A stretch of DNA of 64,000 nt. Source: Chlorokybus atmophyticus. Taxonomy: Eukaryota > Plantae > Mesostigma and Chlorokybus algae. The notes below the pieces were generated by a model that searched no databases, had not been told where the DNA came from, and saw only the letters and a program-made list of their open reading frames with translations. The stretch lies in the NCBI GenBank assembly GCA_009103225.1, contig RHPI01003508.1, forward strand, positions 124,001 to 188,000, in the 5' to 3' direction. Positions 6,405 to 28,735 of the stretch are shown in pieces. The position numbers and the translations under genes are program-made. Each line of letters begins with the position of its first letter. Within the stretch, counting starts at the first letter, position 1.

Positions 6405-7986
6405 CGTCACAAATTTTACACCCTGACTGACCAGGGACTGAAGGACTGTCGGGTGCCTGACCCAAACTGACCCTAACTTACCTATTGGATAGGTCCATGA
6501 TGGGACTTATGGGGCGGCCGTTGCTACTAAGCAACATTCGATGACGGCCAGCCGCCGGCCGATAATTACTCACGACGGTGGCCTGCCTGCAGTAGCAAGC
6601 ACGTGACTATACCACGTGTTTACTGTGACGGCCGACTGCCAGTCGTCTATTGTGCGCGGCGGCAGCCTACCTTTTGCTTATCAATGATTATAAGCAAGTG
6701 ACCGGCCGTCCCTCGCCGCGTGTTTAATGTGACGGTTGACCGCCGGTCATCCACTTAGCGCGGCGATAACCTGCATGTTGCTTATTAATCATGATAAGCA
6801 AGTGACCGGCCGTCCCGGCTCAGCGGCGAGCAATGCCGGTATTACCTTTAAATCGGACGGTGACACAATGCGATTGGCGTACTGTAATGGTACGACGCTC
6901 GAATGTACCATTCAAATGTGACCATAATAGTAAGATAGTTCCATTGTCTGACACAATGGCATCGGCGTACCATTCTAATGGTACGCCGGTGCCATCGTAT
7001 CAACTCGTTTGAATCACTTGGGCTGCCCCAAGTGATTCAAAAGCTCAACGGCTTCAAGTGGAGACTGTTCAACCAGTTGCTGGGCGGCGGCGGCGGCGGT
7101 GGTGGCGGCGGCGGCGGTGGCGGTGGCAATGGCCAATAGTAAGCTAGTTTGCTATATGCTGTGACGCTTGGTATGGGCAGTGGCGCATGCAACCTAACCG
7201 CCCTTCCTTGTTGCCTCAGGGCGGTCAGCCCAGGCCAGGCCAGGCCAGGCTAGGCCAGGCCAGGCCAGGCCAGGCAGCGGCGGCGGCGGCGGCGGTACAT
7301 GGTAAGGGGCAGCATCTGAGTGCATATGTTGTATATGTTGCTGTTGATGGCATTTGTTTAATTCAACATCTTGCATGCTTTCCAGGAGCGGCGGCAAAGA
7401 AGGAGCGGCGGCGAAGAAGGAGCGGCGGCGGAGGTGGAGCGCGGTGCAGTGAGCGCAGGAGCGGCGACTTAGTCTACTAGTTTAAGGCCTTAGTATACTA
7501 GAGTGGTAGTAGCAGCTCAGTAGTGTACAATGTGGCATAGTGGTATGACTTGCAATGTCTTTTCTTTATCACTTTCTAATTTAATTTTTTTAAAAGGCTG
7601 TCTTTCACAGTTGATGCGAGGTATTCAATGATGACTACACAGCAATGACAGGTACCTGTAGCGGTACCCTTCTGTAACGGCAAGTGCCTTGAAGGTACCA
7701 TAAGGTACCTGTCAATCACACTTACTTAGTGTACAATCGCCGGTACCTAACTGATAGGTACCGGTTAATTACCTACTAGTTAGGTTAAGTCCCTTTTACC
7801 TGACTGATGTCAGTCTTGGTCAGTTCCTTTATTAAGACGGCCGCCGACTGATGGTGACGGCCGTTATACTCAGGCCTCTGTATCGAGATTACAGGTGGAC
7901 TGAGGTACGTCAGTCTAAATGAGTATCCTCAGGTGCACGGCCGTTGCCAATATTTTATCGGCCGGCAGGAGAAACATTTTGCGACG
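6405..7986 (+). mobile_element. Non-autonomous derivative of the Plavaka family (same two termini as 9832-26386, opposite orientation)
   Basis: Ends CGTCACAAATTTT... and ...ATTTTGCGACG; 2-bp TSD AG (6403-6404, 7987-7988). Removing it rejoins Helitron Rep sequence (GNRRVV...WASLKYNAHINVE). Left end matches the reverse complement of ~26335-26386; right end (7880-7986) matches the reverse complement of 9832-9940. Confidence 0.8.
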
Positions 7987-8154
7987 AGTACGACCCGACG
8001 GTTACCAATATCAACCGTCACCACATTGCCCATCATTGAGTCTTTCATCGTCTTCTGCACTTTGCGGTTGTCCTGACGACGCCTGTACGCGGGGTAGCTT
8101 GGCTGCGACATTGGTCACATCTTAAAAATGCTTGGGGAAACTTTTGCTGCATGC
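7987..8154 (-). pseudogene. Helitron Rep fragment
   Basis: CSKSFPKHF...YPAYRRRQDNRK...VDIGNRRVV matches the Helitron C.K.FPK...GYP.YRRR...DNRWVVPYN stretch. Confidence 0.85.
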
Positions 8155-8739
8155 TGTTATGCCTATTGTCCGCGCATACCAACCTTCCTAGGGCATGCCT
8201 ACATCGCTCGGCTTACAAGCATCCGACCCGCGCGCGTCACTGACCTATGGCTAGGTTATGACTCAGATTAGCTCATGACCATAGCTTACATAGGCACCGC
8301 GCGTAGCTATTCAGTTGTGAGTCCAGTTATGAGTTGTGTTTTATATCAAGTGGGGATTTGTGTGGAGATAGCCTCGATATGACCGTTAGCTTATGTTTTG
8401 AACAGTCACGATTTAACTTGTATAAGTAGTCACGGTGCTCACCGGATCAGCTGATGACATTGTGAGTGAGAAAGCTAAGAGCTTGTAAAGCGACTTGACC
8501 TACGAACACGCCGACCCGGTTATCAAGAAAACCCTCACCGTGTGAGAGCCAGTGCTCTCAATGCTCGTGTGCATCGCGCTTGTTATTGCTGTGAGCTTGG
8601 TGTGCTAGGTTGCGGCGTGTTGGCATTAGTTAGGGCATAGCATCCACGTGTTGCTTGCTCATTCACCTCACTTAACAGTGTAACACAATTTTCACTCATG
8701 CAAAGAACTGTGTAAACAGCACTACCTATAGTAGTGGCT
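8155..8739 (+). repeat. Terminal repeat A1 of the gypsy element
   Basis: Colinear, closely similar copy at 35597-36189. Confidence 0.9.
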
Positions 8740-9059
8740 TGTTGAGTCACAGTGTCGCCCTCTTTTCTCAAGTGAGTGCGTCGCATTCTGCCTCAGATAG
8801 TGCAGTCTGTAGCTGAGAACACATCCCTGTGCATTTGTTATCACTGTCATCATATAGTGCACACACAGGCACTAGTGTGGTGAGTAGTAGCGGCATCAAG
8901 ACAGGCAGTAGAGCACAAACACTCTACCCTGCATACACTTTCACCTGTGGACTAGCTGTATGAGCAGGCCCACCCCGTACTCTTCAATAGACGAGGGTAA
9001 CCTCAGCAGCTGGAGCCCAACCTCCAGTCTCACCTACGAGCGAACCATCGACGGGAGCA

Positions 9060-9831
9060 ATGATCGCAGCAGCAAAGGCTCGCGTTTTGTCTCCGGCGTC
9101 ACTCCGTTCCTGTCTACTCCTCGTCATCGAGCTTCCCCACTCTCATCCGCCAGTGACAACTACGAGATGGGGTCTTTCAGCTCAACCACCGACGAATTCA
9201 TCATCAATTTCCATTCCAATGCGACAACAAGCTGTAAAGAGAACAAAAACTGGTCAGATTAAATTCTTTCACACTGCTGCTCAATATTTGAACCATGAAG
9301 CACATGTTGTCTGGAAGTCAGTTGCTGAACTGCATCGAGATGATGGCTATGGCGAGCTCGCCAGCACCATAGCATCTGCGTCACTGCACAGTCCAGTAGC
9401 CGTCTCTCCACCTGCCACTCCCGCTGCAATTACCGGCTTGTCCATAGCGGCAGTCATCGACAGGGCAGAAGAGGAGGGACCACAGTTGGTGATTGTCAAC
9501 CTGACCCCTACAGAGATTGAGACCGAGATGGCCGCACGACGAGCCCGGATCCTGGACCGTTCTGCTGATATCCTTAAAGAACAGCGAGCAGCAGCCGTTA
9601 AAGTGGGCACACCTCTACCTCTGGCAACACCTGGCTCTCGTGCGGGAGGCAGTGCTTTCACCCTCGGGTCCGTTGCAGTGCGCGCACCAGCCATCACTGT
9701 AGGTGCTGCCATCTCTGACTCTCCACTCAAGGACCTATACGCTGCATTTCGTCGCACCTTCCCACCTCAAACCACCAGCAAAGTGGAGGAGCTGAGACGG
9801 ATCCGACGCAAGCCCAGCGAGGACCCTCTAC
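9060..9831 (+). pseudogene. gag, N-terminal part (continues at 26389)
   Basis: LYAAFRRTFPPQTTSKVEELRRIRRKPSEDPLL joins YSKLEGLL after the Plavaka is removed (CCT CTA CTG TAC TCC AAA). Confidence 0.75.
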
Positions 9832-9967
9832 TGTAGTAGTATGTTTTCCCTGCCGGCCGACTAAATATTGGCAATGGCCGTGCACCTGAGAATACTAATG
9901 TAGACTGTCGTGGCTCAGTCCACCTGTAATCTCGATACAGGGACCCAATAGTAACTTCCGTTACTAT

Positions 9968-10350
9968 CAGGCCCTTTTTGTTATAATTTAATCTTTAACA
10001 GTTGACTATGCCTAATCAACAGGCGCCTGTCAGTCACGTATCAGGCCTTAGCAGGTGACTATGCGTAATTTACAGCCACCTGTTAGTTACTTTTCAGGCC
10101 TTAATAGGTGACTTTATGTAATTAACAGGCACCTGTTGGTTACACATCAGGCCTTACTAGGTGAACCAATCAACGGGCACTTGTAAGTTACACATTAGGC
10201 CTTAACAGGTGACTACACCTAGTTAGCAGGCACTTGCAAATTACACATCGGTCTTACTTAGGTGACTCAGCCTATGTGACAGGCACCTGCAGGTTACACA
10301 CCAGTCCAGCGCAGGCGACTAAACCTAATTCACAAGCACCAACTAGGTAA
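9968..10350. repeat. ~53-bp degenerate subterminal tandem repeats (about 7 units)
   Basis: Units CAGGCCTTA..AGGTGACT...TAATTAACAGGCACCTGTT.GTTACACAT start near 10042, 10095, 10148, 10196 and 10249. Confidence 0.85.
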
Positions 10351-10701
10351 TTATCGACAAAATAAGACATTCTTTAACAACTGAAGGTAATCAAAGCCTA
10401 ACTATCGTCATATGTATTTGCATAGCTTGACTACACGCGACTGTCACTGACTGCCAGCATTGTTATGTGCATGTGCTGTGTACATGTACCCGAAATGTGT
10501 ACAGTGTCCCTCAGTCACTTGCCCAGGCTTGTAGTTCGATTATGTGACTCGAATGCAGTTCTGTTGTATATCATTAGGGATGCAAGTATTGACATGCATG
10601 AGCATAATGACGATTGACTGAGCTGGTTTAAGATGCTCAACACTCAGTCACAAGAGCCTTGTAGCTATGTACACTACCAGCTAAATGGACTACCAACTGC
10701 G

Positions 10702-12522
10702 CTACACCTCCTCTCCATCATCGCTTTGCTCGTCATCATGGAACAAAGCACCACGCGCGGGGGCCTGTGGAGGAGACGCCGGAGCTTGCTCTTCCTCCTC
10801 AAACGGTTGTGCCAGCGAATCAAATGCCGCTTCTGCCTCAGCGAGCGGGTTACGAGCTGCTGTCTCTTGCGGCGGGCGCCGAGTGGGATCTTTCAGGTAT
10901 TTGACACCAGATGCAGTGCGGCGTCTTACAAGGGTGAATGGCTTGAGGGTTGCGTATCGTTGCCTTATCTCCCGCTTTATTGACATGATCATGGTGTTGA
11001 TTTCGCTGAGGTACTCTTCATGTGTGTCGATGCTGGCAGCTAGGAGAGGGTCTCCATCCTTGCCCTTATGATGCGCTTTACCTGCGTAGTTTACAAGCAT
11101 GTCTTAGTGGCATTGAAAGCCACTATTCACTGCAACGCGTCTGCAAGCCTGTAGTTTGGGGCTACAGCACTGAATTGCTTATGATGGAGTTCAGAGTGCT
11201 CACCGTAAGCAACAGGTATGCGAGGTGGTTGACTGTCAGCTACCGGCGACCAGGTGTATTAACGGCGTAAGACCAGCATTGCACGATCATTTGCCAGATT
11301 ATGGGATTGCCCCATTCATGGATGTATCTCTTCCGCTCCGGGTCTGCATTGTCGGTCACCTCAAATCCCCGCCATGACTTGTCTGAAACAGTCATACCAA
11401 CAAGGCATTAGTCACAATGTAGATAGTTTAAGTTGAGCCTGCACTAGGCTAGAATAGTGCCTGTGACTTACTTTGCGCGTTGCGCATCTGGGCTTTTTGG
11501 GTCTCGGGGTCCATTAGGGCGTCGATGTGCCTGATTGAATCGGTTACAATAGGCGAGATGAGTACGTGTGTATGGAGGCTGAGTAAGAAGGCAGTGTTGC
11601 ATAGCAGACATGGTGGTGAGGGACCCAACTCACTTGCGCTTGTTGCTGTTAAACAGTGTCCACTTGTACTCCTTCTCAAGGACATGCTTGATCTTGGTGA
11701 CGTTCTCAGACCGGACCTGCGTAGCTTTCTTCATGGCGACACTCCAGTGGAAGGGGCACTCCTTGGGAGTCCAGTACACCTCATAGAACTTGGCCGCATC
11801 GGCCTCGTCGTCATGGTCGAAGCCAACTACCTGTCACGGGCAGGTTGGTCAGTGTCACGGTGCAGTGCGGTCATGAAGCATTCACAGCACCTGACACATG
11901 ACGTTACGAATAGTGTCCTCCTTGGGATAAACGTGGCTCTCTACCCAGTGGCCGTTTATGATTTCAACGACGGCATCTCGCAAATGCTGTCCACAGAAGA
12001 ACGATCCGTTACACACATACACACAGTGTCACAATGTCACACAGTGCTTACCTCGTTGCCAATCTTCCACTTGCTTGGGGAAGGGTTGCTGACGGCCGAG
12101 GTTGCCACGTCACGGCCAAATGCGTTTGGGTTTGGGGTTCCAATCGACCCTCTGCAAGCACAACCACATGAGTCATGCTGCCAGCCATGAAAGATGCAAC
12201 CCTCACAGTTGCAAAAGAAGAACAACGTGCACAGTGTATCCAGAACGCATGCAGTGAGTCACTGTGCTAGTCATGATAGAAGCAAGCATCCAAGTTAGAA
12301 GTTGAGCAAGAAGCAACGTGCACAGTGCATCAAGAACGCATGCAGTCTAGCTTGCCCTTGCGACTGCGGTGTCAGGTGGAGTTGTTGTGATGTGCTGGGC
12401 GTTAGCGCGGGGTCTTGCTGCGATTGGTTGGCGACGGTTGCCTGGTTGAACACTGGGGGCAATGTGGACAACTGGCGCCGACCTCCACGACGAGGTGCAC
12501 TTACGGATGGACCACGAGGCAT
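10702..12522 (-). pseudogene. Plavaka cargo gene P1: spliced, unknown function, at least one in-frame stop
   Basis: Exons read MPRGPSVSAPRRGG..., GSFFCGQHLRDAVVEIINGHWVESHVYPKEDTIRNVMCQ, VVGFDHDDEADAAKFYEVYWTPKECPFHW..., KRYIHEWGNPIIWQMIVQCW and ...EEYLSEINTMIMSIKREIRQRY, with GT/GC-AG boundaries; no family recognised. Confidence 0.55.
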
Positions 12523-12928
12523 CTCTCCAAATGATAGTCGGGTGCCGCCTGTTTAGCTGTAAGTGGCGCTGCCGCCTCGAACGCTGCCGCCGCCGGTTGG
12601 CCCGCCCGAATGTATGAGGCGCGAAAACGAAAATGAGGCGGTTTTGAACGTCTAGAGTCCCGCACTAGAGTCGCACTTGTAGTGCGTCCTTGCTCCTATG
12701 GTTGATGGTACGACTTATGCATTCGTGCCATGCATGCTTCGTACAACCATTGTTACCAATGGTTGTGTCGTAACATTTATGGTACGACAGAGGCATCTCT
12801 CGTCCAACCCCAGCGATTGCCGTACAATGGCTCTGTCGTACCATCCATGGTACGACAGAGGCATTGCTCGATCAGCCCAAATGGGAGTTAGCATGCACTC
12901 ACCCAAACACGCTTCATTGATGGCCGGA

Positions 12929-15900
12929 TGATGGCACGCAGGGGCACCAGGTCGATGACGGGTCGAATGTCAGGCTTGATGGGCCTGGGTTCGACTAGGA
13001 GGCGGAGGACCAGGAGTCGGAGGAGGCGGCGGCGGCGGCGGCGGCGTGGCACATCTTGCGAGAAGTTGTGGTCGTAAGAGTTCAAGCAGCGAAGCCAGCT
13101 ACTACCGGTCGCCACGTCATGGATCATGGCAGGCGTCAGCAATGGGGCTGTCCAACATGCATCACCAACATTGGACAAACCAGCAGGCAAGCCATTAAAG
13201 ACCATCTTCACACAGAGAGCTGCTTGGTGGCTCGCTTTCTGCAACAGGGAGTGGATCATGAGCTGCAGTCCTTGGAGCCCCTTGTCAAAACCATGCGGGA
13301 CCAATTGCGGCTGTGGGAACAAGCACAAAGGAATGCAGAGGTACACTCAACAGTCACATGCATTTCCTTGCAAGAGCAATTTGTTTTTTAGCGCAGTCCA
13401 TGTGATATATGTAGCGTGGCTGCAGGCCTCCACTATTCACCCATACCCACCCTACAGTCAAGCCGACATTGCGGAAGCAAGAGCAGATAGACAGAGCTGG
13501 GCGGCGGTATGTTGTTGCCAATCTCGCTGTGCATGTTGACTGCAATGTCGGCTCCAATGCATGCCTACCTTTGCATGCTAGGATGTGCGTGAGCGTGCGA
13601 AGTCGCGCGCGCGTGCCGAACGAAGTAGGCTGGGTTTGAGCACAGGAGCGCGTGGCCATTCGTCCGGCATTCAACCAATAGTGCATCAACCAGCAATGAC
13701 GCAGTCCATGCAATCATTCGTGCATCAACCAGCAATGCCGCAGGTGACTGTTCGAAGCAACCAACTGATGACGGTGTGACGCAGTTGACTATTGCAATTG
13801 CAGTGTCGCAAGCATGCAGCTAACCCACATGTGATTGGTTGACAGCACCACAGTGCACTAAGTCCTGTTGGAGCTCCTATGCAAGCCTGGATTCAATCCC
13901 ATCAACTGGTCCTTCAATCCCACTTGCTGATGGGGGCGGCGGCAATGCGCATCAGTTTAACATGCATGTTGGCCTGTTGAATCCCGACATGTCCATTGGG
14001 GCAGTGGCGCATGATGTGCCCATGGCTCAAGAGCTCCGTGACGAGTCTGCCATTGAGGGTGGCGGGGAGAGTGCAGCCAATACCACCTTGTCAGCCCCCA
14101 TGGCTTCCCCTGCTCCATGCAGCCCACGGGCCATTGAGGTAAGTCGCTGTCTTTTATGCTCGTGCTTTGGTAACAATGCGTCAGGCACTGCATAAGCTTA
14201 TATTCGTCCTTTGCAACATTGTGAGCCATCTTATCCTGGGTCCTGTATACAGCCCCCCTTGCTGCATGCACAAGTGGTCTCACCTGCAGCTCCTGCTCCC
14301 CTCCCAGCCAGAGCGCAACCACCTTCCGCGGCACCAGTCCTTCGTGCACTGCCATCTCCTCCACGAGCAGCACCGGTGATTGCCGAGCAACAGTCCTTCT
14401 TGCCGCCACCGGCGAGACCACAGCACAATGCAACAACCGATGTGGCTTTTGCACCTACCTTACCCCACCCGCTGCAAGTTGAAGCCGGCAGTCTGCCCCA
14501 AACTCAGGTACTGTATCAGTCACTGTGACTCTTGCCGTCCACAGTTGGACGCACCATTTGAGTGTTGTATGCGCATGCAGCAAGGGTCACCACCTGCCAG
14601 CGAGTCATCAGAAAAGCTGGCCGCAACCCGCATACGGCCATCAGTTATGCTAGGTGGCCAGCTCGCCTCATGGGACCACTTCAATGCGCCAATGGTTGGT
14701 AATTGCTTCTACCATTGTGTATTTCGCGCCAGGCCATCCATAGCGCAAAGTGTCCTGGATGATCATAAGTGCCCCAGCTCGAGCAGATTTTGGGCCATGC
14801 TGGACACCATGGACGACGACGGCAGGGGGGACACTCTTCGCAAAATCACCGCCAAGGGTGTCGATGCAGGCGTGGCAAGCAGAATCCTAGACATCTGTAG
14901 AGCCACTGGTGCCGCGGGAGAGATGGCGCAGGATTACGACAAACTGCCTGCGACCATGTTGGCTGATGTCAATTGCAACGTTGACATAGCCTTGGCCAAG
15001 GTGCAACATATCGTGCGGAGAAAAGATGTGTACGTCGAGCACCTGCAGATGATCATGTTTGCCAATAAGCCGGGCTCGTTGATTGGCTGCGTGACCGTTC
15101 AGCGCGAGCATGAGGAGTGGGTGCCACGGCCCGGCAGCGCAGTTTGGGTTGGAAATAACAAAGTCCCCAACTCAGTCCTGGTGGTGGGCACTGCTCCTGA
15201 TGAGCCAAAAGCACACTTTTGGCTCCTCAAGCCTGCAAGCACCGAACAGTGGTCGTGGCCTATGCATGAAGTGCCACCGGAGGTAATAGGCCTGATCGGA
15301 GAGTGGCGGAATAGCGTTGCCAATTCCCCGCTACCACCGGCTGTGACCCAAAGTGCTGCGCCAACGCCTCAGGCCTCGCCTTCGTGTGCTAGGCAAAAAG
15401 TAGCCGAATATTCTGCACATCCTGCCTCCCCTCAACCACAGCCACATGCTCGCAATAAGGATTCAGCACCTTCCCTTCCTGTTGCGGAGACTCACTTGCC
15501 ACCGCACTCCAACCATTCGGAGGCATCTCCATTAAGAAGCAGCTGTAGCTCGCCCTCTCCCTCTAAGCTTGCCACATTGATCCCAACCTGTCTTGTTGGT
15601 AAAGAGATTGATCGAGGTGTCCTGAAAGCTGCGCTGGAAGACAAAGGCTTCATGCACGACCTCACGAAGCAACATGAGGTCGTGGAGGAACGGGAGGCAA
15701 CCAACAAGCGCAAGGTTGTGAAGCAAAAAGATAACGCCTTACCTCCTCTGAGTGACAGTGCCACGGAGAGCGCCTGCCAGGATGTGCAGGTTGACAAAAA
15801 AAAGAAGAAGGTTGTTGGAACAAAGGACGCTGATAGGACCAAAAAAGGAAAGGTGAGGCATTGTTACAACGTTAGAAGCACAGCGCCTTGAAGCCTCACT

Positions 15901-16920
15901 GGGGCTGACTGTGTGTCTTGAGTAGGCACAGGCGGGTTTACAGCGTCAAGTGGCTGCTCAGCATCGTCCAGAGAGACATCCGGTGCGGCACGAGCTGCCT
16001 AAGCTCAAAGCACCGACGCGCAGACGCTTTCAGGCGCTGACTCGTAGTGCAAAGGAGTTGATCGCCCTATAATACGCCCAAGACGCACTGCATCACCGCA
16101 TGCGGCATGCCTCGAGGTGGGTGACGAAAGTATGCAATAAGTAGGAGCAAACGCGGAGAGTGCGGTCTAAACAGACCTCTGGGGATTGGACGTAGTTAGA
16201 ACCCATACACGATATGGCCATCCGTAGTACGTTGTTGCCCCTCACCGTCCTCGATATGATGGTGTTGTTGCTGCCGCAGCAACCCGGCAATGTGCAACGC
16301 AATCCGCGGAGTAGAACTTCGACCTGCTGCAGCAGATGTACCTCGATGTCGACTGATGCGGGTCGAGATGTGTACCACTACCTGAGCAAACATACTGGGT
16401 GGCAAGTAAAACTATGCGAGCTGTACTTGGCATGCTTTGGCTGGCAGTGGCTGTATGTCATACGGCATGTCGAGCTGATTCCGTAAAAGCTCGAAGAAAA
16501 TGGCGATGCGGGGGAGTACACGAGTGACGACAGCCATGTCGAGGGCCTAGATAAACGCATGCTGGACGAGACCACCAAGACCAGCAGGTGGTGTATGGCG
16601 GCAGATGGGCGTCAGGTGATTGAGCAGGCAGTGGAGCGTTATGCTGCGCCATTGAGATGGGAGTCGCTACGCCTGCAACGCGATAACAGAGTTTGGTGGC
16701 AGAGGCAGCTTGCACACCCGCGTGCACCATGTGTGCTGATTTGTCGCATTGAAGAGCCCCCCCCCCCCCCCCACGGATGGGGAGACGCCCTGTTGCAAGA
16801 AAGCGATGTGCCATGTCTGCATCATAGCACATCAGAATACCGTGGCAANATAAATCAAAGAATCTGCAAATGTGTCCCTTCTGCAAGCAACCTCACCCGT
16901 TTTGCTTGCCACGCCTGATG
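12929..16920 (+). pseudogene. Plavaka cargo gene P2: spliced, zinc-finger-like N-terminus and OTU-like cysteine protease domain, degenerate 3' part
   Basis: WGCPTC...KDHLHTESC near 13145-13230; APMVGNCFYHCVFRARP (~14690) and KAHFWLL (~15210) resemble OTU Cys and His boxes; downstream frame has several TAA/TAG. Confidence 0.45.
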
Positions 16921-17489
16921 CAAGACGCCAACGTGTCGGCGGTAATTTGGCCCCCGCCTTGATGACAATTGTGCATGTATTGTAGTTTGTGTTGGCTTCC
17001 TGTGAACCATGTAGGTACATGTATAGTTGCAGCATGGTGCATGGTGCACCCGAGATTTGCTGTTGTCAGAAGCATTGGCTGTACATGTGTATGATGACTG
17101 CCCGGCGCATGAGTCAGTGCATGGCTTGCATACCTCGCTGGTTCAGAGCGTGGTTGATTGCAACAGACTCGAACAGCGCTCTGGGTTCCATGGAATGACA
17201 GCACAATATTACTCTACGATTGTGGTAGTATGCGAGTATCCTTGTACTGTAGTACCATTAACAGATGGAGTACCATGCATGTTGATGTAGTACCATGCAT
17301 GGGTTTATAATAGTGTCTATGGTACAATTGTGCTTCACTTGAAGTTTGACCCATTTAGGGTTCGTAAGCTCGCAACCCTAAATTGATGCCCATACCCTAA
17401 AGTCTCGCTCAGTTTGTGGGCAGCCGTGCCGATTCCTATTTTGCATGATGTCGGCGGCAGCAGTTGAATCCCCCTCACCTAAAAGACCA

Positions 17490-19201
17490 TGCTTGGTGTG
17501 CCCACAATGCAATGCGTACGTATGTGCCAATGGCCGTGGGCAGTAAATGCGAGCACACTTGACTGAATGCCAGCGAGTGCAGACAGTGTGCCACGTTTTT
17601 AGTGCTGCTTGCTAGCATCACACCACACACACTGTCGACGTGTTTGGCTGCCGCCTCGGCCAAGTGCTGTGCAAGGAACCCGAGTTTTTCCATTGCGTGC
17701 AGTGCGTGTGCGAATCGTGCTCGCGCTCATGCTTCGAGTGGCGGGGAACCCATGCGCTTCTTCACATAAACAACACCAGAGACATGTGGTTAGTGGACAG
17801 GTGGTGGATGCTATGGAGGTAATTCTGCATAGTGGACCGCAACGTATCACTGCTGTTATGTTATGTTGGACGTATGCTTAATTCATGCATGTTGAAGCTG
17901 TTGTCGCATTTAGAGCAGTCTTCCACGGTGTGGGCGTGGGCAGTTCCATCCCCTAGCCGTTGTAGAGGAGGCAGACCATCGACCGTTTGACAGCGCACTG
18001 CATCGGCTGCGGAACGCAGTTAAGTTGGGATGCGAGCAGCTGATCGGTGTGAGTGTCATGGTGCATTGGCCGCTGGATGGGGAATGGTATGCGGGCGTTG
18101 TAGAATCATTTAAGCAAACGTCAGGTCAGTATCGCTTCGTGGCGTGCGAGATTGAGGTCGCATCATATATGCATGGTGCAATGGAAAATGTCTTTGCAGG
18201 GCAGCACTGTGTTGTATTTGATGATGGTGATCGACCACAAACCGTCAACTTCAAAGGGCACAACAGCAAATATTTGCGTACACATCATCGCTGACGGGGC
18301 ACGCCATGTTCTGCGTGCCGGAGGGGAGAACGTCAGTCGCAAAGTAAGCCCGGACGGCATCATTATTAGTCCCTGGCCAGCACCACGGCCAGCCTTGACC
18401 ACATACACGCCATTTGACAACAAGCCTGGACGCACACGCAGACCAAGGGCACTCGACCTATTATGCGGCAGCGGCGGTGCCAGTGTCGGTCTATACCACG
18501 CAGGCTTTGGCGTGACCAGGATGGACATAAGTCCCTCCTCTGATTACCCGCTGCCCTTCATACACCGCGATGTATGCACCCTGAGTGCAGGAGAGCTGAG
18601 CGAGTACGAGCTCATCTGGGCCAGTCCACCATGCAAGGCCTATTCAGGTGCTATCCCGGCACCTCAACGGGCAGCACATGGCACATCCTGGAGACACCAG
18701 GATATGATATCGCTCGTCCGACGTCCGCTGCTTGCAAGCCAAGTCAACTTTGTGATTAAGAATGTGCCAGGAGCAGCTTCCTCAATCAGACCCAATCTGT
18801 CCCTTTGTGGCACGATGTTTGGCCTATTAACTTTCCGACACCGTCTATTTGAGACACAGCCAGTGGTAGCTACCCCACCAGCACGCTGCTCGCACGCGGG
18901 CAAGGCAGTTGGACTGCTATCGCCGCACCTGTCCGCTAGCGCAAAGAAGGCAATCGTGACATCAAACGCGCCACAGTAAATGTACCCGGTGTATGGCCTT
19001 CCAAGCACCAGGGGCGGCATTGCTGCGTGGCAAACAGCGCTGGGAGTGCCATTGATGACCTCGGCCGTTACCATAGTGAATGCAGTTCCTTCTGCAATGG
19101 CGGAGTGCATAGGGCGTCTCATGCTTGAAACAATGGACATGCGCTGTAAGTACCTCATGTGTCATAGAACTATGAGGCTTGAGTGTGGTGCACTGTATTG
19201 A
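17490..19201 (+). pseudogene. Plavaka cargo gene P3: zinc-finger-like + Tudor + phage-type C5 DNA methyltransferase
   Basis: CLVCPQCNAYVC...HLTEC (~17490). Tudor LIGVSVMVHWPLDGEWYAGVVESFKQTSG|QHCVVFDDGD with a 75-bp intron (18125-18199). After a 1-nt frameshift come C5-MTase motifs: I (ALDLLCGSGG), IV (IWASPPCKAYS), VI (VIKNVPG), LCGTMFGL.T.RHRLFE and X (NAVPSAMAECIG). One internal TAA at 18977-18979. Confidence 0.85.
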
Positions 19202-19204
19202 TGC

Positions 19205-22200
19205 TTAATGCCACACGGCGGACTGATTGTTAAATGTTGCACGGCACATTCGATTGTGGTGATAGTTGTGCAATGACAGCTGCCCTGTATTGTACACGTC
19301 CACATGCAAAAGTTTTAGCATACGATTAGCAATGCCTAACTGACTGATATGCTCCAAACTCAGAGTAGTGAGACAAGTACATGTGTCACGTGGAAGTGCA
19401 GTGAACATTCATCCAATACTTGCCCTCTTGTACACGGGCGCTGTCCTTGTTAAACATGGGGAGCAGCTGGACAATGCCTTTAACTTGCTCCAGAGTCACG
19501 ACATCGAGATGTGGACCCCCTCGACGCTTTTCCCATTCCAGAGCGATGCACTTTGTGTCACATCCAGCTTCATGTATCAGCGGACAAGCACGACCTCCTT
19601 CCACACGTGCTTCACACGTGACAGGGAGCTTGTCGGCGAATGGAGTCTTCAGGGCGACTTGGCGGCTACGCGCAGATTCGCTCCAGTACGGGCTGGACTT
19701 TCTCCTTGTCAGCACATCCATCCGTAGCAACTTGTCCGTCTTCTCCATTACATTACAGCACTGCTGCCGCGCCTGCGCCATGAGCGAGCGCATCTCGGAA
19801 TCCACGACCATGCCATCCTCTCTCACATATTCCGCACAGCTCAATGCCTTCAGGATACGTGCCTGGTAGTCCCAGTTGTTGCCACCACGCGCCCACCGTT
19901 TGACATTTTGGGCGTGCGTCTGCTCCATGCGGTTGGCGCTGAACCAATTCGGGTGTTCACTGCTGACAATTGCCGGCCCAAAATGAGTGAGTTGATGCAT
20001 CTTCTCGATCTTCCAACCTGACTTCTGTGCAGAATATGACGACAGTAGTGGATGCAACAGCTTTGAAGGCAGCCAGCTCGTTGTCGGCTGTGGTCAGGGT
20101 CTCTCTTGTGTGTTCATGCGCCTTGAGCAACTTCTTGTTCCACTGGGCAAGCGATGCGGCAGCAATGGTGAAGAAAACGTTGCCCTCACTATCGAGTAGC
20201 AAACCGTCTGCAAGAACCGGCAGCAGCTGCAGCCGCCACTTTCTCCACCACCTGAAAGGAGTGGTTGAACAGGAAGAAATCTACTGTGCTTGTGGGTGCC
20301 TTGAAGTGCGAAACCCGTAGAGTCGCCTTGCATGCATTTAGCATGTGCACAGCTGCTTGTGAGCACGTGTCGTTGGCTTTTGTGTTCAACACAAAAGCAA
20401 CACCAAAGACGTGCATGGCCTGTAGAATCTGTCTCGTGGATGGACGCAGTCGTTCCTTTGCAGCGTCGTACACAGCAGCAAGCAGGTGGTCAATGATGCC
20501 TCCCAGCACATGCATTGCGTTAGGGGGCAAGACGAGAGTAGCAGTCAGCTTCCGGCACCCACGACTTTCGCCAACTCCACAGTGCATTCTGTTGCCAAAC
20601 CACATTGCCTGGTTTTATGGAAAGCCGTTCATCCTCACGAATGCCGGTAATTTGACCATCACCTCCTCGACATGCATGGAGTGCTGCTCGTTGAAAGTCT
20701 TGGCTGTCTGGCGTGCATTTCTAACACCGCTATGCAGGTCCGCCCGCAGCTGACGTATTGCTGGTGTGTAGAAGGCCTCGGTTCTCAATTCTCGGTCCTC
20801 ATTCATCTCCAACAGATCTGATTTGGTGACGAGACAAACAGCGCAAGGATATCGTATTTGGTTGCCGAACACAATGCGTGCGAGTGTGGCAGTCTCCGAC
20901 AACACGACAAACTCAGATGCTCTACTAACAACATCCTCCATGCACTGTTTGCTGGCAGGCTGCATCCGGTTACAACCATGCATGCCCACTACCTGCAAGT
21001 CGCTGATGTAGTTGGCAAGCGCGGGAAACACACGATGCTCGATGCCATTCGGGTCGATGAGCTGCAGACCTTCCCAACTCGCCCGCTTCACATCCCCTAA
21101 CACTACATTCAAAGCGTCATCAAAAATCTCACGTTTTCGAATGGAGAACGATTCCTTGCCCTGCGCCCAGGTGGGATGCCCGGCCACTGCGTGAACCATC
21201 GGCAGAAGCGCTATCATAACAACCCCCATGTTGCTAGCATACATGTCCCAACTGTAGTTGGCAAGCGATGCCATCAGAGGGTAGCCAGAGCGCTTGCCCG
21301 CGCTGTCCAGCGTGGTCTTGTCACTGTATAGAATGGCAGGCGCCAAGTAGGACGCTTCCCCCACCTCTCTCCTTAAATCCACCTCCACATCCTTCCACCA
21401 ATCGCCCGTGGAAGGATGGCCAAAGCTGTGCTCGTCACCACTGTACTGGAGATTGAAGCCATTGGCGGCATGTGGATTGCCATACAACCGCGCGAGCCAT
21501 ACCTGCTCCAACCAAGAGCATTAACAGGCATGCTGGCCTCAGAATAGGTACTGCATTAGGTACTGCATTTCACAGACCTTGGCCGGCATATATGTGACGC
21601 TGATGTCCTGATCCTCAGGGTCTCCAGGCTTGCTCAGGTCAGCCGTCACATAGTTCTGATAAGGCAGCACACTCGCATGTGCATATGTGACATGGGTCTG
21701 ATGGTCGAAGCACATGCACCGCACACCGTGAACACACCTCAGATCGAGAGAAAGCAATTGTGGTCCGGAGGTAGCTGGCCACATGCACACCGGTCTCCCA
21801 CTTGAGCTCTTCTGTCAGGAAGTGTGCATTTTGGATGCACTTGATGATCCGCCCCATGTCAGAGGCCGACAGGCCTTAGCCGTTGTCGCACTGCACGAAT
21901 GCCACTGCAAGAGCATGCTCCGAGCCATACCACTTGGATTCCGACGCGTGCGAAGGGACGCCTCCACTTCCATGTTGGCGTGCCACAGGTTTCTCAAGCA
22001 CACGCACACATCGAAAGCCCTCGTTCACTTCCTCCTCCTCCTGTTGCTGCTGTGCGTGTGTCTCTTGGAGGAATTCTTCAACATCAAGCATGTGCGCATC
22101 CTGGATCGAACTCACCGGTTTAACATGACCTGCATCGTATTATAATGGACGCTGGCCGACATACAGCTTGATTTGCTTGCACACCCTGCTGCTAATAATG

Positions 22201-22390
22201 TGTATGTAGACCGAGCTGCGTGTGGCGAAGCGCATGTGGCAATAAGGATAAAGGACTCCCATATCTCACTACTAACGTCGACACAGGTGTCGCCAATGTA
22301 ACCTGCATCGAATCCAGCAACACGCACACCCGCCGCCGCCGTCGCCGCCACCGCCACCGCCACCGCCACCGCTACCCTTGCATGCCAGAG
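19205..22390 (-). CDS. Plavaka transposase, spliced, probably degenerate
   Basis: HPSTGDWW...APAILYSDKTTLD...GYPLMASLAN...IFDDALNVVL...EGLQLIDPNGIEHRVFPALANYISDL...YPCAVCLV; C-terminal KIEKMHQLTHFGPAI...FSANRMEQTH; N-terminal (C)PYCHMRF...IHI...C zinc finger with an apparent stop nearby. Confidence 0.9.
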
Positions 22391-22706
22391 GCGGGAAACT
22401 TGGCCGCCATTCACTGGCTCCGTCGTACCATTATTATGGTACGATTGAGCCATTGCACGTCCAGGGTGAGTCTCTGCATATATATCCTAATTCAACCGTT
22501 TCAATGGTACGAAGATGCCTTTGTACAAAGGTACCATTGAAATGGTACCTTTGTACAGTGGCAATGGCAGTTCGTACCATTGACATGTGCTGTGCCTGCG
22601 CATGAAAACACCATTGATATCTCCGCCAAGCTATGCCCTTCCAAGGGCGTGATGCCGAGGGTATGTGGCGTTTGGTGGATTGTTGGCGGCGTTGGCAGGG
22701 GCGTAG

Positions 22707-24932
22707 TGTTGGAGGTGTCACATGGGTGATGCTTGTATCCGGTCAGCTTGCCCTCCACACAGGAGTCAAGAGTCGAAGGTATGCGCTGAGCACGTGGACT
22801 CCGGACTTAGCAAGACGGTCGAGCCAGGACGGACTCTGGACCAGATGCTGAGTAGAGCGTTGGGAGAAACCGCATAGCTTTGTGGATACGTAAGCTTAGC
22901 AGACGTGGCTTAGCTTGTTGGAAAGCTCTGGTCGTGAGTTAAATAGAGCAACTTAGAGTGCGTTGAAAGGCTGAGTATTGTGCACGGTGCGGTGGTTGCA
23001 AATGTAGACGTGTGTAGAAACTGGCGGGGTATAAAACCCCTGGACTTGTATGACATTAATGGCAGTAGCAGTCATGCTCTTATGTTGATGTTGTTGGCGT
23101 GTCACTTGCACGTGTGTATGTCAACAAGTTATGGGCCCACACATGCTTGTGAAGGTTGATGGAGTGTGTTTCAATTGTGTGAGTAGCTGTAGTTGCTTGG
23201 TGTGGAGTAGGTTGTAAGGTCTGCAAGTAGCAGAGGGGCAACCACGGCCACAAGCATGGACGGCTTGATGTTTACAATTGAACCACTGGACGTTGACAAC
23301 TACAACATATGGAGTGTGAAGATGGAGCTACTACTGGCCCACAAGGAGCTGTGGAAGTATGTGGATTCGGCGGAGGCAGTCCCTGTAGGCGAAGCGAGTG
23401 TCTGGGCAACACAAGGGAGAAAAGCTTTAGCGTTGATAGGGTTGCACATGGCTGATCATCACCTGGTGCTGATAAAGGAGTGCAAGAGTGCACAGGAGCT
23501 TTGGATGAAGTTGGATAGCCACTTCAAGTTGCGCAACATGGCGAGGAGATTGCAGCTGAGGCAGGAGCTCAACTCATTGCGCAAGGAGAGCGGGGAGCCC
23601 ATTGTCAAGTTCATGGCGCGAGCGAAGGCGTTGTGGAGGGACTTGCTGGGTGTTGGCCACGAGCTCAAGAAAGTTGAGGTGGTGTGGGCTGTGCTCTCAG
23701 GTTTGCCCAAAGAGTACAGGGTTGTTGTCACTATCTTGGAGTCTGGGAAGGAGGACTTGTCAATGGATGGGGTAACACCAATGCTTCTTTAAGAAGAGCA
23801 GTGCTTGAGGAAGGAGGACGATGATGGAGAGGGAGCACCTGGAGGTGCTATGGCATTCACGTCATCATCGAGGCATGTGAACAAGGGCACACGAAGCAGC
23901 AACGTGGAGTGTTGGCATTGCGGGGAGCGTCGTCACATCAAGATAAAGTGTCTTAAGTTGAAGAAGGCTGATGGTGAGCATCGAGCGGTTGCTTTCCATG
24001 CATCGGATGAGGGAGCGGAGTATCCTGGGTGGGTGCTGGACACGGGAGCGAACAGGCATCTCACAAGCGATAGGAGCAAGCTCGCCAACCTCACTCCTTT
24101 ACCTGAGCCAGTTACGGTGGATTTTGGGAACCGGCAGATGCTAGAAGCTGTTGCAAAGGGAGATGCCAATCTGAGGTGCAAGGTTGGTTGTATGGTGAAG
24201 GCGGTTGTGCTTAGGGATGTACTGTATGTGCTAGGTGCATGTGCTAGTTTGTTCTCAATACGTAGAGCTACGATAGTTGGTGCAAGGGCTGTGTCTGATG
24301 CGGACAAGGCTCGTATAGAGCTTGGTGGTGTCACGCATGTAGTAGGCATCAACAGGGGTGGACTCTACTATGTGGAAGAGGACGGTGCGCACAAGGTTGT
24401 TGCAACGACAAGGGTGGTCGAGAAGACAGCGTTTAAAACACCACAAGGTCATGGCAACAAGGAGGAGGCACATAAGGTTGCTGTCACAAGGAGCTCGGAG
24501 CCCGTGGGAGCTGAAAATGGCTACAAGGAAGCGCTGGCGAGCAAGGTGCATCAAGTGAAGGTTAGCAAGGAGCATGTGCATCAAGAGCAGCACAGAGATA
24601 AAGGCAAGAAGTTGAAGGCCAACCAAGGGGCCCGAATTGCTGTGAAGGACAAGGTGCTGAGTAGAGCGTTGGGAGAAACCGCGTAGCTTTGTGGATACGT
24701 AAGCTTAGCAGACATGGTTCAGCTTGTTGGAAAGCTCTGGTCGTGAGCTAAATAGAGCAACTTAGAGTGCGTTGAAAGGCTGAGTATTGTGCACGCGGTT
24801 GTTGCAAATGTAGACGTGTGTAGAAACTGGCGGGGTATAAAACCCCTGGACTTGTATGACATTAATGGCAGTAGCAGTCATGCTCTTGTGTTGATGTTGT
24901 TGGCGTGTCACTTGCACGTGTGTATGTCAACA
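22707..24932 (+). mobile_element. Ty1/copia LTR retrotransposon, internally deleted (no IN/RT/RH)
   Basis: 5' LTR 22707-23126 (TGTTGG...TCAACA); 3' LTR remnant ~24655-24932; 5-bp TSD CGTAG (22702-22706, 24933-24937); half-tRNA-iMet-type PBS AGTTATGGGCCC right after the 5' LTR. Confidence 0.93.
23256..24400 (+). pseudogene. copia gag (UBN2-type), zinc knuckle and aspartic protease
   Basis: IEPLDVDNYNIWSVKMELLL, LRQELNSLRKESGEPIVKF, CWHCGERRHIKIKC, WVLDTGANRHLT; stop at ~23790. Confidence 0.9.
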
Positions 24933-24939
24933 CGTAGTG

Positions 24940-25820
24940 GGCATTGTGGTCGAGGTCCGGGATGAATTCCATGTTCGCACAGGGCGGGCAGGGTGCGGGA
25001 GGGGTGTTCTTGGTGTCGAACCCCACCATGCCTACCAAGGGCACAGCCAATGACAACAGTGAACCGGGCGATATCTTACAGGGCTCCCCCTCCGAGTGGG
25101 CAAAGGCACACCACAATACTGCCTCTAAGAACATCCGACCCACCAGCAGCTGCGACCACGGCGACATGATTGAAGGGACCAAACAAGACTGGTATAACCA
25201 AGGTGGGTTACGATGCACTGTCAATGCCACATGCTAGGGTTCTTTTATCTTGCACATGCACATCCTCAAGTATCTTGCACATGACATACACTGTCAATAC
25301 CACATGCACAACCTCATGCACAACCTCATGCACATGCACATGAACAGCATGACCAATCTCGCAAATGCACAGCCTATTTCTACTTGCGGGAGCTCACAGG
25401 TCGCAAAAGAGAAGCTGCGGAGTACCACGAACGGGTAATCCATGACCTACTTTAATGTTTCCAGCGGTATTTAAGCATTATGCTTGCAGATTGCCATGTT
25501 GGTTAGAGTGAACCGAGAGCAGCGCGGCAGGCTGACTGTCTGCCTGGCGGAGTGACAACAACAAAGCGAAAGACGAGGTAAGCATGTGTATGCTGATGGG
25601 CTAGTCCTCTGGCAGCACGCCACTCTTACAGCATCACCAAATGCAGGTGGTCACTCTCAGAGCGACCATCAAGCGCATGCGCATGCACGGCGAGGCGCTG
25701 GCATTCAAGCTGAAGGACAAAGTAGCCGCTGTACTGTCAGCGAGCGAGGCAGCGGATGAAGATGACTTCGATGTTGAAGTAGAAGACTTGTCGGAGGAGG
25801 AACAGGAGGAGGGGGTTTGA
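24940..25820 (+). pseudogene. Plavaka cargo gene P4 (3' exons; 5' end probably near 22630, disrupted by copia), unknown function, acidic tail
   Basis: GT-AG-bounded exons near 25000-25202, 25400-25435 and 25490-25578, and last exon QVVTLRATIKRMRMHGEALAFKLKDKVAAVLS...DEDDFDVEVEDLSEEEQEEGV*. Confidence 0.45.
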
Positions 25821-26388
25821 GGAGGAGTTCTGAGGCATGCACCACGGGTTGACAAGCTGCGCATGAGTGCGACAGCTAGACTCAATGTTATAGGGTAGTT
25901 TCATGCGCAAGTCGGCTGCTCAGTTGCAAGTGGACATACTCTCACCACTGCCAGTACATTGTATATATTGTGGGCTTATAGGTGCAAGACCAAACAATCA
26001 GCCTAAGGTTTGTACAAGCTGCATAGCATGTTAATGTTGGCTTACGGCAAGAATTGCCAACTTTTGTCATATGGCAAGGGTCACATATTAACAGCAGTGT
26101 AACGGCAAAAAAACTGCCGGCTATTGCTGTCAGCTGTCCGTAACTACCGGCTAACGGCTGTCTGTGCACATCAATCAAAGGGGAACTGGTTGACAACTCT
26201 CGGCCGGTTAATGCCACTAACAACCACTTTCGGCCCGCGGCCGTCTGCGTCAGTCCACTCAAGCCAATGGCAAACCCAACAGTCCAAAAGTAACATTTTA
26301 GGCAGCGGCAGGCAGGCTTGGGCAGGCTCAGGCACTAGTCAGTCCTTCAGTCCTTAATCAGTCACCGTGTAAAATTTGCAGCGACGCC

Positions 26389-27180
26389 TGTACTCCAAAC
26401 TGGAAGGGCTGTTAAAGAACACTGACTACAAGATCGTCAGTGACGAGGCTGCTGCAGTGGTGTATGTTAATGAGTTTGATGCCACCCTGAGCGAGTTGAC
26501 GCGCCTGACCCTGAACTACAGCAGGCCCCTTGGCTACACGCTCGAGAACGCTTTCGAGATCGCACAAGCCATCCATAAGCGCTTGGTGTATGAGAAGGCA
26601 ATGCTGGACACCAACCGCAGTGCCTCACGGCTTGTAGCCAGCACAACTACTAAGCCTCCTCGTCGCGAACATGGTCGGGACGCTCCACCAGCACGCGACA
26701 AAGGGAAACGGTTATCTCATACTGCTTTGTCTGCCCCTGTGCTGTGTCATTGCTGTGGACGGCATTGGCACTACTAAAAGGAGTGCACCGAAGAGTACTC
26801 AACCCTGGTCTGCGACCACTGTCACAAGACGGGCCACTTGGAGTCAGTCTGCTAGCTCAAGTTCCCTGAGTTCAGACCTGCCAACAGCTACAATGGCAAC
26901 AACTCTGGTGGCTACAACAGCAACAACACAGGAGGCCACAACGGCAACAACTCTGGTGGCTACAATAGCAACCACACCGTAGGTCACAACAACAACAACA
27001 ACTACGCCAACGCCCGCAAGGAAGAGCAAGGCTACAGGGGGAAAAATCGTCCTCCTCAGCGCAAGGGACTGGAAAGACGTCTGCGCGCTGCTGCTGTTGC
27101 CACCAAGGCTTTAGCCAACCCGCCAGTTGATAACCATATTGCTGCCCTCATGGCGCGTATGGCACGCTTAAAGCAATGAG
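26389..27180 (+). pseudogene. gag C-terminal part with two CCHC zinc knuckles
   Basis: YSKLEGLL...TLENAFEIAQAI; CHCCGRHWHY*KEC and CDHCHKTGHLESVC; stops present. Confidence 0.75.
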
Positions 27181-28207
27181 CATGACTACCGCGCCTGCGA
27201 CTCTGCCCGATGGGCACTGATGGCTCCAAAGCGCACGAGAGACACGAGCACTCCGTCACGCGTTCAGCCACCCCGATGAGCTCGCGGGGAAGCCGCAACA
27301 TCGTCAGCAGCTACCTCCTCTGAAGCCACCAGTGGTGCTGCATCAGCGGCAACAGCCACACCGGCTACGCCGTCAGCATCAGCAGCAACTACTCCAATTG
27401 CACTAGTGGACATTGTGACGCCAACACTGGTGAGCACGATGGCGACAGCCACAGCTGTTACCGACTCTGCAGCAGTAGATCGCACCGGTCCCGCTCCAGC
27501 TGCAGAACCACCTGTGTCAGCAAGCGTTGAGACCATTCTCGCGGCACTATCTCAACCACCGCCACTGCCATCGTCGAGCGCGCTGCCACTGCAGCGACGG
27601 GCGCAGCTACATTGCCCGTGCTCTACGTTACTCAGGCTGTCCCTCGAGGTTAGCAAGCTGAGCGCATGGGCGACCATCATGCGTGGAGCAAACCCCACTA
27701 CCATTGCTTTTAGGCGCGGAGCAGAGCGCACAACGTGCGTTGAACGCAGTGATTGCGTCTTCCCGCTGCCTGAATATCACACCCTGCCAGAACACTACTA
27801 AGCGGCAATAGAGGATGAACTCCTCGCCGGCATGGCGCCTCCCATGCGAGACCGCGTCTTTGTGGTTAGACCACCTATGGTACTGAAGTTGGCCCTACAG
27901 CTGTTTCGGACTCTGCATAACAACATGCAGACCGCGCCACGCCAGCCCGCACCAGTCCGTCACGAGCCTTTCAAACCAAGCCCATTGAACACTTATCGAG
28001 ACCGGCAACTGAACTTGTAACAGCACATCGCTGATACAGCCGACATGTCTTTGAATGAAAACGAAGCACTGAGACCCCTCAGTACCGTTCGGCTTCACGA
28101 GCAATATACCGCTTTGAAATAAGCGTTCACCTGGCGGCAGGACCCAACTGCAGCAATCAACGCAAGAGCGCAAGCCCTTGCTGCTGCTCGCGCTTCCGTT
28201 CCTCAAC

Positions 28208-28735
28208 TGTTACAACCCACTCGACCACAAAAGACTTGATGCTTTTATAGTCGATTTGTGGTAATTTAATATACCTTCCCGTTACATTCCCCCCTACTTA
28301 AGAACGCTAGCGTCCTCGGCAGCTGGCTCCCATCAGCTAGGGAATCATCCAAGGGGTCTGATTGGAGACGGTCACCGGCCCCACCACTCAAGGACTGGCC
28401 AATTTAGGCCCATACCGGTCAACACGCGCATAGCGCACCGCTGTCGGCCCCACAGGTCGCATGGCGACAGGCGGGTTGCGTCCTGCCGCGCCGACTAAAC
28501 TGGTCCGTCCGACGCGATTGCCATTGAGCAAATTGCGTCTTATCGATGATGGCACTTATGAATTGACGATGTATAATGTTCTTGCATCGAAAAACAACGA
28601 CTGCGGAATTCAAGTGCAATGCAGGAATCAAACCCGGGTTCAAGCTCCGATACCAATCTCACAGCCCACTCGACCACAAAAGACTTGATGCTTTTATGGT
28701 CGATTTGTGGTAATGTAATGTACCTTCCCGTTACA
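28208..28735 (-). mobile_element. TRIM inserted in the gypsy gag-pol linker
   Basis: 79-bp LTRs at 28208-28286 and 28657-28735; 5-bp TSD TCAAC (28203-28207, 28736-28740); minus-strand PBS TTGGTATCGGAGC and PPT GTAGGGGGGAA. Confidence 0.92.

Follow-up and report, generated by a model that had tools for sequence, protein, structure and literature searches.

A decayed Plavaka transposon of Chlorokybus atmophyticus with a Tudor domain and a short C5 cytosine methyltransferase that may be fused in intact copies

The window of Chlorokybus atmophyticus DNA analyzed here, a 64-kb stretch of contig RHPI01003508.1 with a GC content near 52%, contains an element of 19,969 bp (6410–26378) whose two ends could both be delimited, and this element is a Plavaka cut-and-paste DNA transposon of ~20 kb in a state of decay. 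It carries several cargo genes and two nested long terminal repeat (LTR) insertions, and its genes include a Tudor domain split by an intron, a short C5 cytosine methyltransferase (MTase) pseudogene, and the Plavaka transposase. The features listed in a first-pass annotation of this DNA were all found in place, and its placing of the MTase within a Plavaka element with defined boundaries is borne out by the ends of the element, the target-site duplication, and the transposase domain PF18759.

An inverted-match search of 5001–17500 against 22301–40000 gave a single long match, which pairs a left terminal inverted repeat starting with 5′-CA (6410–6448, + strand) with a right one ending with TG-3′ (26340–26378, − strand), 34 of the 39 positions being identical (blastn E = 7e-4). 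The repeats are flanked by the two copies of a CA target-site duplication (6408–6409 and 26379–26380, both + strand). A 2-bp duplication alone could arise by chance, but it is supported by the open frame, FNDAHEERQRRLYSKLEG, that runs across the site once the element is excised. The terminal pattern, which was derived from the element's own ends, matched twice against an expectation of 0.02. Elements of the CMCT clade share CA..TG ends, and Plavaka duplications are 2–3 bp long (PMC12730594; here and below, published systems are compared through parts of the cited sources), and both the ends and the duplication found here fit a Plavaka element; such elements have been reported in chlorophytes (PMC13519894). 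The exact termini, CAAAT..ATTTG, match neither those of fungal PlavakaA (TGT..ACA) nor those of PlavakaB (CATCA..TGATG). A shorter element spanning ~16.8–22.7 kb with PlavakaB-like ends was also considered and rejected, given that no convincing repeat pair was found and the read depth runs past both points. The length of the element may be slightly off because of a single N at 16849, and longer runs of N lie outside it, at 2466–2733 and 31692–32074. The window holds no second copy of the element.

The transposase gene (19386–21520, − strand) is broken by stops and frame changes but retains a Plavaka DDE domain (PF18759, E = 4.2e-21; 75.9 bits against a cutoff of 26.3), which is the only DDE transposase found within the element, and its 5′ exons probably extend towards 22300. 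A CAVC at 20845 would fit the C(2)C motif, while the histidines at ~20512 and ~20488 are spaced more widely than in the H(3-4)H motif. Candidates for the catalytic D, D, and E, chosen by eye from Plavaka motifs, are at 21328, 21010, and 19931. No long transposase relatives were found at E ≤ 1e-5, in a search that is weak by its own terms. At 19611–19618, near the 3′ end of the gene, contigs of other sequence runs hold 248 extra letters. The transposase ends 185 bp from the stop codon of the MTase, and the two genes converge, as the first-pass annotation had described.

The Tudor gene is visible from an open frame of 17914–18124 (+ strand), in which the domain starts at ~18034; a start codon and upstream exons were not found. 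It is followed by a 75-nt GT..AG spliceosomal intron (18125–18199, + strand) and by exon 2 (18200–18294, + strand), which contains FDDGD and ends, in this copy, at a stop at 18292–18294. Because Pfam matches were weak for the Tudor domain (E = 0.02–0.1) and also for the MTase (E = 0.05–0.07 with the C5 methylase family), other tests were needed. The intron ends with GT..TGCAG but is in frame and free of stops, and the DNA alone therefore does not force splicing. When the unspliced read-through was compared with PDB entry 7DE9, however, it matched in two pieces (E = 3.8e-5; query 2–28 with chain 10–36, and query 57–68 with chain 40–51), and the 25 surplus residues between them correspond to exactly 75 nt, which independently confirms the intron. 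The entry 7DE9 is the Tudor domain of Arabidopsis RDM15 bound to H3K4me1, whose pocket consists of Trp616, Tyr623, Tyr641, Asp643, and Asp645, with Glu647 and Gln654 contacting H3R2 (PMC8184781). The spliced Tudor of the window has W, Y, F, D, and D at the RDM15 offsets 0, 7, 25, 27, and 29, i.e., the three aromatic residues and two aspartates of a PTM/DIR17-like (PF21743) Tudor at identical spacing. The methyl-lysine pocket is therefore well supported, in agreement with the earlier view of the domain as a methyl-lysine reader, and binding to H3K4me1 is predicted. The domain differs from that of RDM15 in having Phe for Tyr641 and Pro for Glu647, and RDM15 itself is a host factor of RNA-directed methylation for which the source consulted describes no MTase domain (PMC8184781).

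The MTase pseudogene (18410–19201, + strand) was recognized by homologue search, alignment, and a fold model. A single frame holds, in order, RPRALDLLCGSGG, DYPLPFI, IWASPPCKAYS, VIKNVPG, LCGTMFGLLTFRHRLFE, WQTALGVPLMT, and NAVPSAMAECIG, with a terminal stop at 19199–19201. The catalytic Cys of the PC motif is retained, while the Glu of the ENV motif (18758, now KNV) and the Gly of motif II (18518) are lost, and an internal TAA (18977–18979) falls before motifs IX–X; this copy, which the first-pass annotation had considered inactivated, is predicted to be dead. The assignment was decided by sequence search, which yielded 3,189 relatives at E ≤ 0.001 and 1,693 at E ≤ 1e-10 among 50%-cluster representatives, in addition to 32 from a word-index search. 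These relatives are mostly prokaryote or virus proteins of 200–250 aa with 32–50% identity, and their alignment contains motifs I (FxGxG-like), IV (PC), VI (ENV), VIII (RxR), and IX–X of C5 enzymes in the proper order. A model built from a 100-sequence alignment (predicted local distance difference test score 88.5) has the class I MTase fold, with DNMT3A/B and M.HaeIII matched by Foldseek at E = 1e-8 to 1e-7 and 10–14% identity. C5 enzymes in the PDB match the model at 10–18% identity, and none is favored by sequence. The family profile touches DNMT1 at motif I only, with E = 6e-5 or worse, and neither the profile nor the relatives indicate closest kinship or shared companion domains with DNMT1, DNMT3, or CMT. 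The enzyme thus belongs, as had been proposed, to a short prokaryote/phage-type family, and the intact family enzyme is predicted to methylate cytosine. In its dinucleotide profile the gene does not differ from the element or from the remainder of the window, which means that it is not a fresh arrival.

Three public sequence runs from two studies contain 21–24% of the sampled words of the window, and contigs of these runs (X1, X2, and X3) were aligned to 13500–25500, a stretch on which a further run, X5, placed no contigs. The depth over 13500–22321 is evenly high (137–330 in X1 and 85–174 in X2) and many diverged contigs cover this stretch, 622 of them in X1 with identities from under 90% to over 99%, as would be expected of a repeat family; the ends of the element lie outside the mapped stretch. 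Within a nested copia insertion the depth is 27–36 in X1 and 12–43 in X2. From the depth and the diversity of contigs, the element likely represents a multi-copy family. One X3 contig of 2,521 nt covers 17858–19611 and 19618–20091, linking the Tudor domain, the MTase, and the end of the transposase gene; over the former range it has 72 differences and 15 gaps, with the 248 extra letters at 19611. Since MTase and transposase are joined on this contig, a one-off capture, which the first-pass annotation had named as one outcome that would speak against it, is not borne out. In X2, a minor contig that bears a deletion reads G just before 18759, which gives a weak hint of the ENV glutamate. The listed differences from the runs comprise 40 substitutions out of 717 and 12 indels out of 59.

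The frames of Tudor and MTase are offset by one base in this copy, as had been noticed before, with the frameshift in a zone at ~18260–18290. All three runs show gaps there at full depth, of 1, 4, and 2 nt at 18265, 18267, and 18288. Because these add up to 7 nt, which leaves the remainder needed, the listed indels would join the two frames. In-frame ATGs upstream of the enzyme exist only within the Tudor intron and exon 2, and the Tudor frame stops ~40 nt past the domain. Given the lack of an in-frame start between the two domains and the indels that join the frames, we infer that Tudor and MTase are fused in intact copies of the element, and these run data suggest that such an intact fusion exists in other copies. 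A second intron, from a donor-like GTAAGC at ~18345, was also considered; an acceptor at ~18441 is excluded because relatives align through PFDNKPGRTRRP, an alignment that leaves an earlier acceptor possible.

The window contains 22 copies of the heptamer GTACCAT where 6.9 would be expected, and 19 of the 22 sites are within the element, where they compose four clusters and one lone site and include four inverted pairs. The clusters are found at 6887–6984 and 12705–12853, with one inverted pair each, at 17252–17325, upstream of the Tudor–MTase gene, and at 22425–22580, upstream of the transposase gene and with two inverted pairs. Because they extend from near the left end to the transposase, they tie the parts of the element into one unit. 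They precede apparent cargo genes as well as the transposase gene and are candidate binding sites of an element-encoded protein. Another cargo open reading frame (ORF; 14380–15891, + strand) contains an OTU-protease-like segment (14545–15315), which rests on an Atlas match and is a lead only: the first Atlas matches, at 0.91–0.92, are clusters in which 19–34% of members have PF02338, and the nearest clusters of the segment are mostly from Nucleocytoviricota or haptophytes, while Pfam gave no match for the ORF. Further exon-like frames at 10700–12200 (− strand), 12900–13540, 16196–16850, and 24940–25820 (all + strand) are likely additional cargo genes. The other cargo frames tested between 8991 and 26334 received no Pfam assignment, TET/JBP was not detected among them, and no gene like those of the red-algal PAG elements described below was detected in the element by Pfam.

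The element has itself been a target of insertion. A solo-LTR-like sequence (8153–8745, + strand) is 90% identical to 35595–36195 in self-blastn, and its label is inferred from the position of that second copy after a gypsy pol. A truncated copia retrotransposon (22838–24942, + strand) has LTRs at 22838–23136 and 24647–24942 and a depth below that of its surroundings. Outside the element, the gypsy retrotransposon that ends with the LTR-like sequence of 35595–36195 is decayed (29881–35308, + strand) and contains a second C5 methyltransferase (~30660–31600, PF00145 E = 1e-8, with GWECQ..ENV), which is flanked by the protease and the reverse transcriptase; the integrase is followed by a PHD finger. 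This methyltransferase has no similarity to the Plavaka enzyme, and the retrotransposon appears to resemble the DNMT-carrying Gypsy elements of charophytes. Fragments of a PIF1 helicase at 4060–5399 (− strand) are possibly a Helitron remnant, and at 43177–56165 lie two gypsy elements, arranged in tandem and related to each other, with SH3 and a weak match to a chromodomain.

The wider MTase family spans many bacterial phyla and phages: the phage matches comprise 309 records, 186 of them from Mycobacterium phages and 52 from Streptomyces phages (32–37% identity among the 30 best listed), and the 80 best GTDB loci represent at least 15 phyla, with Acidobacteriota (21), Actinomycetota (16), and Pseudomonadota (14) prominent among them. 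In the alignment, the proteins closest to the window MTase make up a group whose members have extra sequence inserted between motifs VIII and IX, which Pfam called MBD (PF01429) above the cutoff in two relatives and below it in three. The window MTase is without such an insert, and the X3 contig has no large insert there either. Two signatures are nevertheless shared with the group, both written as patterns after the alignment had been seen: a helix after the catalytic Cys, present in the window and in 12 of 15 group members versus 1 of 164 other matches (the pattern misses the group member L192), and a YG motif, present in the window and in 12 of 15 versus 0 of 164. Among 245 MTase ORFs from the fetched loci, the helix pattern was found in none and the YG pattern in eight. 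A quick tree of 79 rows (the window, 14 group members, 60 random members of 150 other matches, and four named phage enzymes) placed the window within the insert-bearing group with a Shimodaira–Hasegawa-like approximate likelihood ratio (SH-aLRT) support of 95, and a careful tree of 33 hand-picked rows placed it with the same group at 94/91. The window scores 252 bits against the profile of the group and 171–194 bits against those of 12 random sets of 15 others.

As for the sources of the insert-bearing proteins, one is identical to a gene on a giant-virus metagenome-assembled genome (MAG) contig of IMG/VR, and another is a gene model of JGI Chrzof1, presumably the green alga Chromochloris zofingiensis; the remaining members have no stated source. 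The best viral fold match of the window enzyme is a Pithovirus C5 methylase (E = 5e-17, the next being 3e-9). The target-recognition region is interrupted by an insert of MBD or MBD-like type in P0036, P0038, P0041, P0091, and P0154 and at locus L192:7853-9058, and the giant-virus MAG contig carries a more diverged form of the MBD-insert MTase. In P0034, P0035, P0050, and P0140 the short MTase is duplicated in tandem within one polypeptide, and in further long relatives the enzyme is joined to DNA polymerase A domains. Scans of viral contigs for the context of relatives gave nothing for P0003 and P0041 and two distant loci for P0037, while alignment scans for the context of the closest relatives returned ordinary short members, and a motif scan gave 37 loci with the enzyme present in one.

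Among known systems, close parallels are the giant Plavaka elements PAG1–3 of 17–19 kb from the red alga Bostrychia (bioRxiv 10.1101/2025.02.11.637652), with which the element was compared by description and Pfam. They have a Plavaka transposase, a similar size, several accessory genes, internal inverted-repeat arrays, and a DNA methyltransferase with a chromatin domain in one gene, but that gene of PAG2 joins a putative N6-adenine methylase (PF01555) with SET, a combination of two writers, whereas here a C5 enzyme of the PF00145 family stands behind a Tudor reader. The fungal TET/JBP Plavaka and other CMCT transposons share CA..TG termini, a 2-bp duplication, and base-modifying cargo with the element, while their cargo oxidizes 5-methylcytosine (5mC) and the PlavakaA and PlavakaB termini are those given above (PMC12730594). 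C5 methyltransferases are carried by the retrotransposons SymbioLINE-Dnmt, SymbioDIRS-Dnmt3, and KnitGypsy-Dnmt3 (PMC5890265) and, with a histone reader, by EpiLTRs with DNMT, DAM, and a chromodomain (bioRxiv 10.64898/2026.05.21.726589), and some such elements have been shown to methylate CG. Their enzymes are mostly related to DNMT3 or DNMT4, in contrast with the minimal prokaryote/virus-type enzyme on a cut-and-paste element found here, and DNA transposons with DNMT in marine viruses are cited by PMC5890265. The Pithovirus-related DNMT of Acanthamoeba (PMC12344493), which recalls the Pithovirus fold match of the window enzyme, and the giant-virus DNMTs of Amoebidium (PMC11244446) are viral-type C5 enzymes in eukaryotic genomes. 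These are likened to the window enzyme by type; in the parts of the sources consulted, they generally have no companion domains, nor are they presented as cargo of transposons. In Ectocarpus, the giant DNA transposon Sola1-1 carries a prokaryote-type MTase (ParB with an N4/N6 MTase) and Gypsy-10 carries a Tudor domain, called the first reported on a transposon in 2025 (PMC12477816), but these are separate elements, the former with an amino-methyltransferase instead of a C5 enzyme and the latter a retroelement. In the literature search, neither a Plavaka or CACTA element that carries a C5 methyltransferase nor MBD-insert enzymes of the short family turned up in any paper; subscription journals and bioRxiv supplements were mostly outside its coverage. 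The novelty is more limited than the first-pass annotation suggested, because red-algal Plavaka elements with an adenine methyltransferase–SET gene had been described before.

These findings lead to a mechanistic reading to which we give about even confidence. Intact family members would produce one Tudor–MTase fusion protein, the Tudor domain of which would dock on a mono-methylated lysine of histone H3 while the MTase would write 5mC on nearby cytosines, guided by H3K4me1-type chromatin. 5mC normally silences transposons, and H3K4me1 marks silenced chromatin in Chlamydomonas. The GC content, the TGCAG acceptor, the plant-type Tudor, and the presence of Plavaka in chlorophytes all fit a green-algal host. 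The most likely purpose would be marking of the element's own copies and of other repeats, so that transposition would be restrained and would burden the host less. All that is said here of binding, activity, target, and purpose is prediction, while the ends, the Plavaka transposase, the residues of the Tudor pocket, the MTase family, the lesions, and the linkage on one contig are observed. Several observations weigh against the reading. With Pro in place of Glu647, the H3R2 binder of RDM15, specificity for H3K4 cannot be taken for granted. The listed substitutions and indels revealed no intact copy, the depth is not a copy number, and the comparison spans 13500–25500. None of the relatives examined bears a Tudor domain; the 10 matches of a search for longer proteins have DNA polymerase, primase-type, or other prokaryotic-looking partners, with no Tudor listed. 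No biochemical test of the short C5 MTase family was found in the literature. CpG and GpC are no more depleted in the element than around it, and the 24 decay sites examined have no preferred context, so that no methylation footprint was seen. Finally, the MTase departs from 12 of the 54 conserved columns (those kept in at least 80% of the other 99 alignment rows), including Gly37 and Glu117. Five of these 12 departures fit a single change of the C-to-T type and seven are not of this simple type, which could mean long decay of the MTase copy.

Some of this evidence would also fit passive cargo, i.e., MTase and Tudor exons captured once and amplified as dead or neutral DNA in the manner of Pack-type elements, which we consider unlikely although this copy is broken at several places, neither an intact copy nor a transcript was seen, and an element-specific footprint is absent. 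Where the window differs from the X3 contigs, it has A/T against G/C at 196 sites and the opposite at 62, an excess that decay of this copy from a family in better condition would produce. Moreover, of the four changes listed for the MTase, one leaves the protein unaltered and another yields the EYP of the four closest insert-bearing relatives, and the retention of 42 of the 54 conserved columns together with the host-like dinucleotide profile suggests long selection inside the host. Slightly more unlikely, in our estimate, is that Tudor and MTase are separate cargo genes, or that the Tudor belongs to another protein, with the MTase alone tuning the binding of the transposase; its target would then be the GTACCAT sites of the element, whose clusters offer an available sequence target, or excised intermediates. 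The offset frames of this copy agree with separate genes, as do the absence of a fused relative and the fact that the closest relatives bear their reader as an internal insert and not at the N terminus, and the joining of the frames rests on the 12 of 59 indels listed. Those indels would nevertheless unite the frames, and the confinement of upstream in-frame ATGs to the Tudor intron and exon 2, as well as the end of the Tudor frame shortly after the domain, argue for a fusion.

The origin of the enzyme involves a further alternative, because the first-pass annotation had an orphan MTase taken up horizontally, straight from an actinophage or actinobacterium, and then fused to a host Tudor domain. 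The predominance of Mycobacterium and Streptomyces phages among the phage records agrees with this route, although the phage collection is rich in actinophages, and so do the Atlas neighbors of a close relative, which are phage and Actinomycetota clusters. The YG motif is shared by two of the four named actinophage enzymes, both from Gordonia phages, and by five of the 80 GTDB loci, all five from actinomycetes. In addition, forcing the window to join three actinophage enzymes and one neighbor costs 12.9 log units and is not rejected by the approximately unbiased (AU) test (p = 0.26), and the window is a long branch in the 79-row tree. Nor is the link of the insert-bearing group to giant viruses uniform: Pfam found no hallmark genes among the 15 neighboring ORFs on the giant-virus MAG contig, and one of eight proteins labeled giant-virus-like was tied to a giant-virus contig. 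Nevertheless, the many phyla among the best GTDB loci, the preference of both trees and of the profile scores for the insert-bearing group, and the helix signature, albeit a post hoc pattern, speak against an actinophage source as proposed. We therefore regard direct capture as improbable and disfavored, and favor a route of the enzyme by way of giant-virus or algal mobile DNA over a direct one from a phage.

No matter which route brought the enzyme into the element, a Tudor–MTase fusion that reads mono-methylated H3, if confirmed, would fill a missing case, namely a C5 writer linked to a histone reader on a cut-and-paste element. With an enzyme of ~240 residues and a reader that has a solved homolog, self-silencing, the marking of rivals, and effects on host chromatin would be directly testable. 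The MBD-insert relatives provide a second lead as a compact read-and-write methyltransferase. It is possible, though we hold the idea tentatively and lean somewhat against it, that a minimal phage-type C5 lineage has settled in eukaryotic mobile DNA, meaning giant viruses, green-algal genomes, and cut-and-paste transposons, and has been coupled repeatedly to chromatin readers, once as an MBD insert and once as a Tudor domain at the front. If so, it would constitute an undescribed reader–writer clade, through which DNA transposons could place 5mC on chromatin that carries histone marks.

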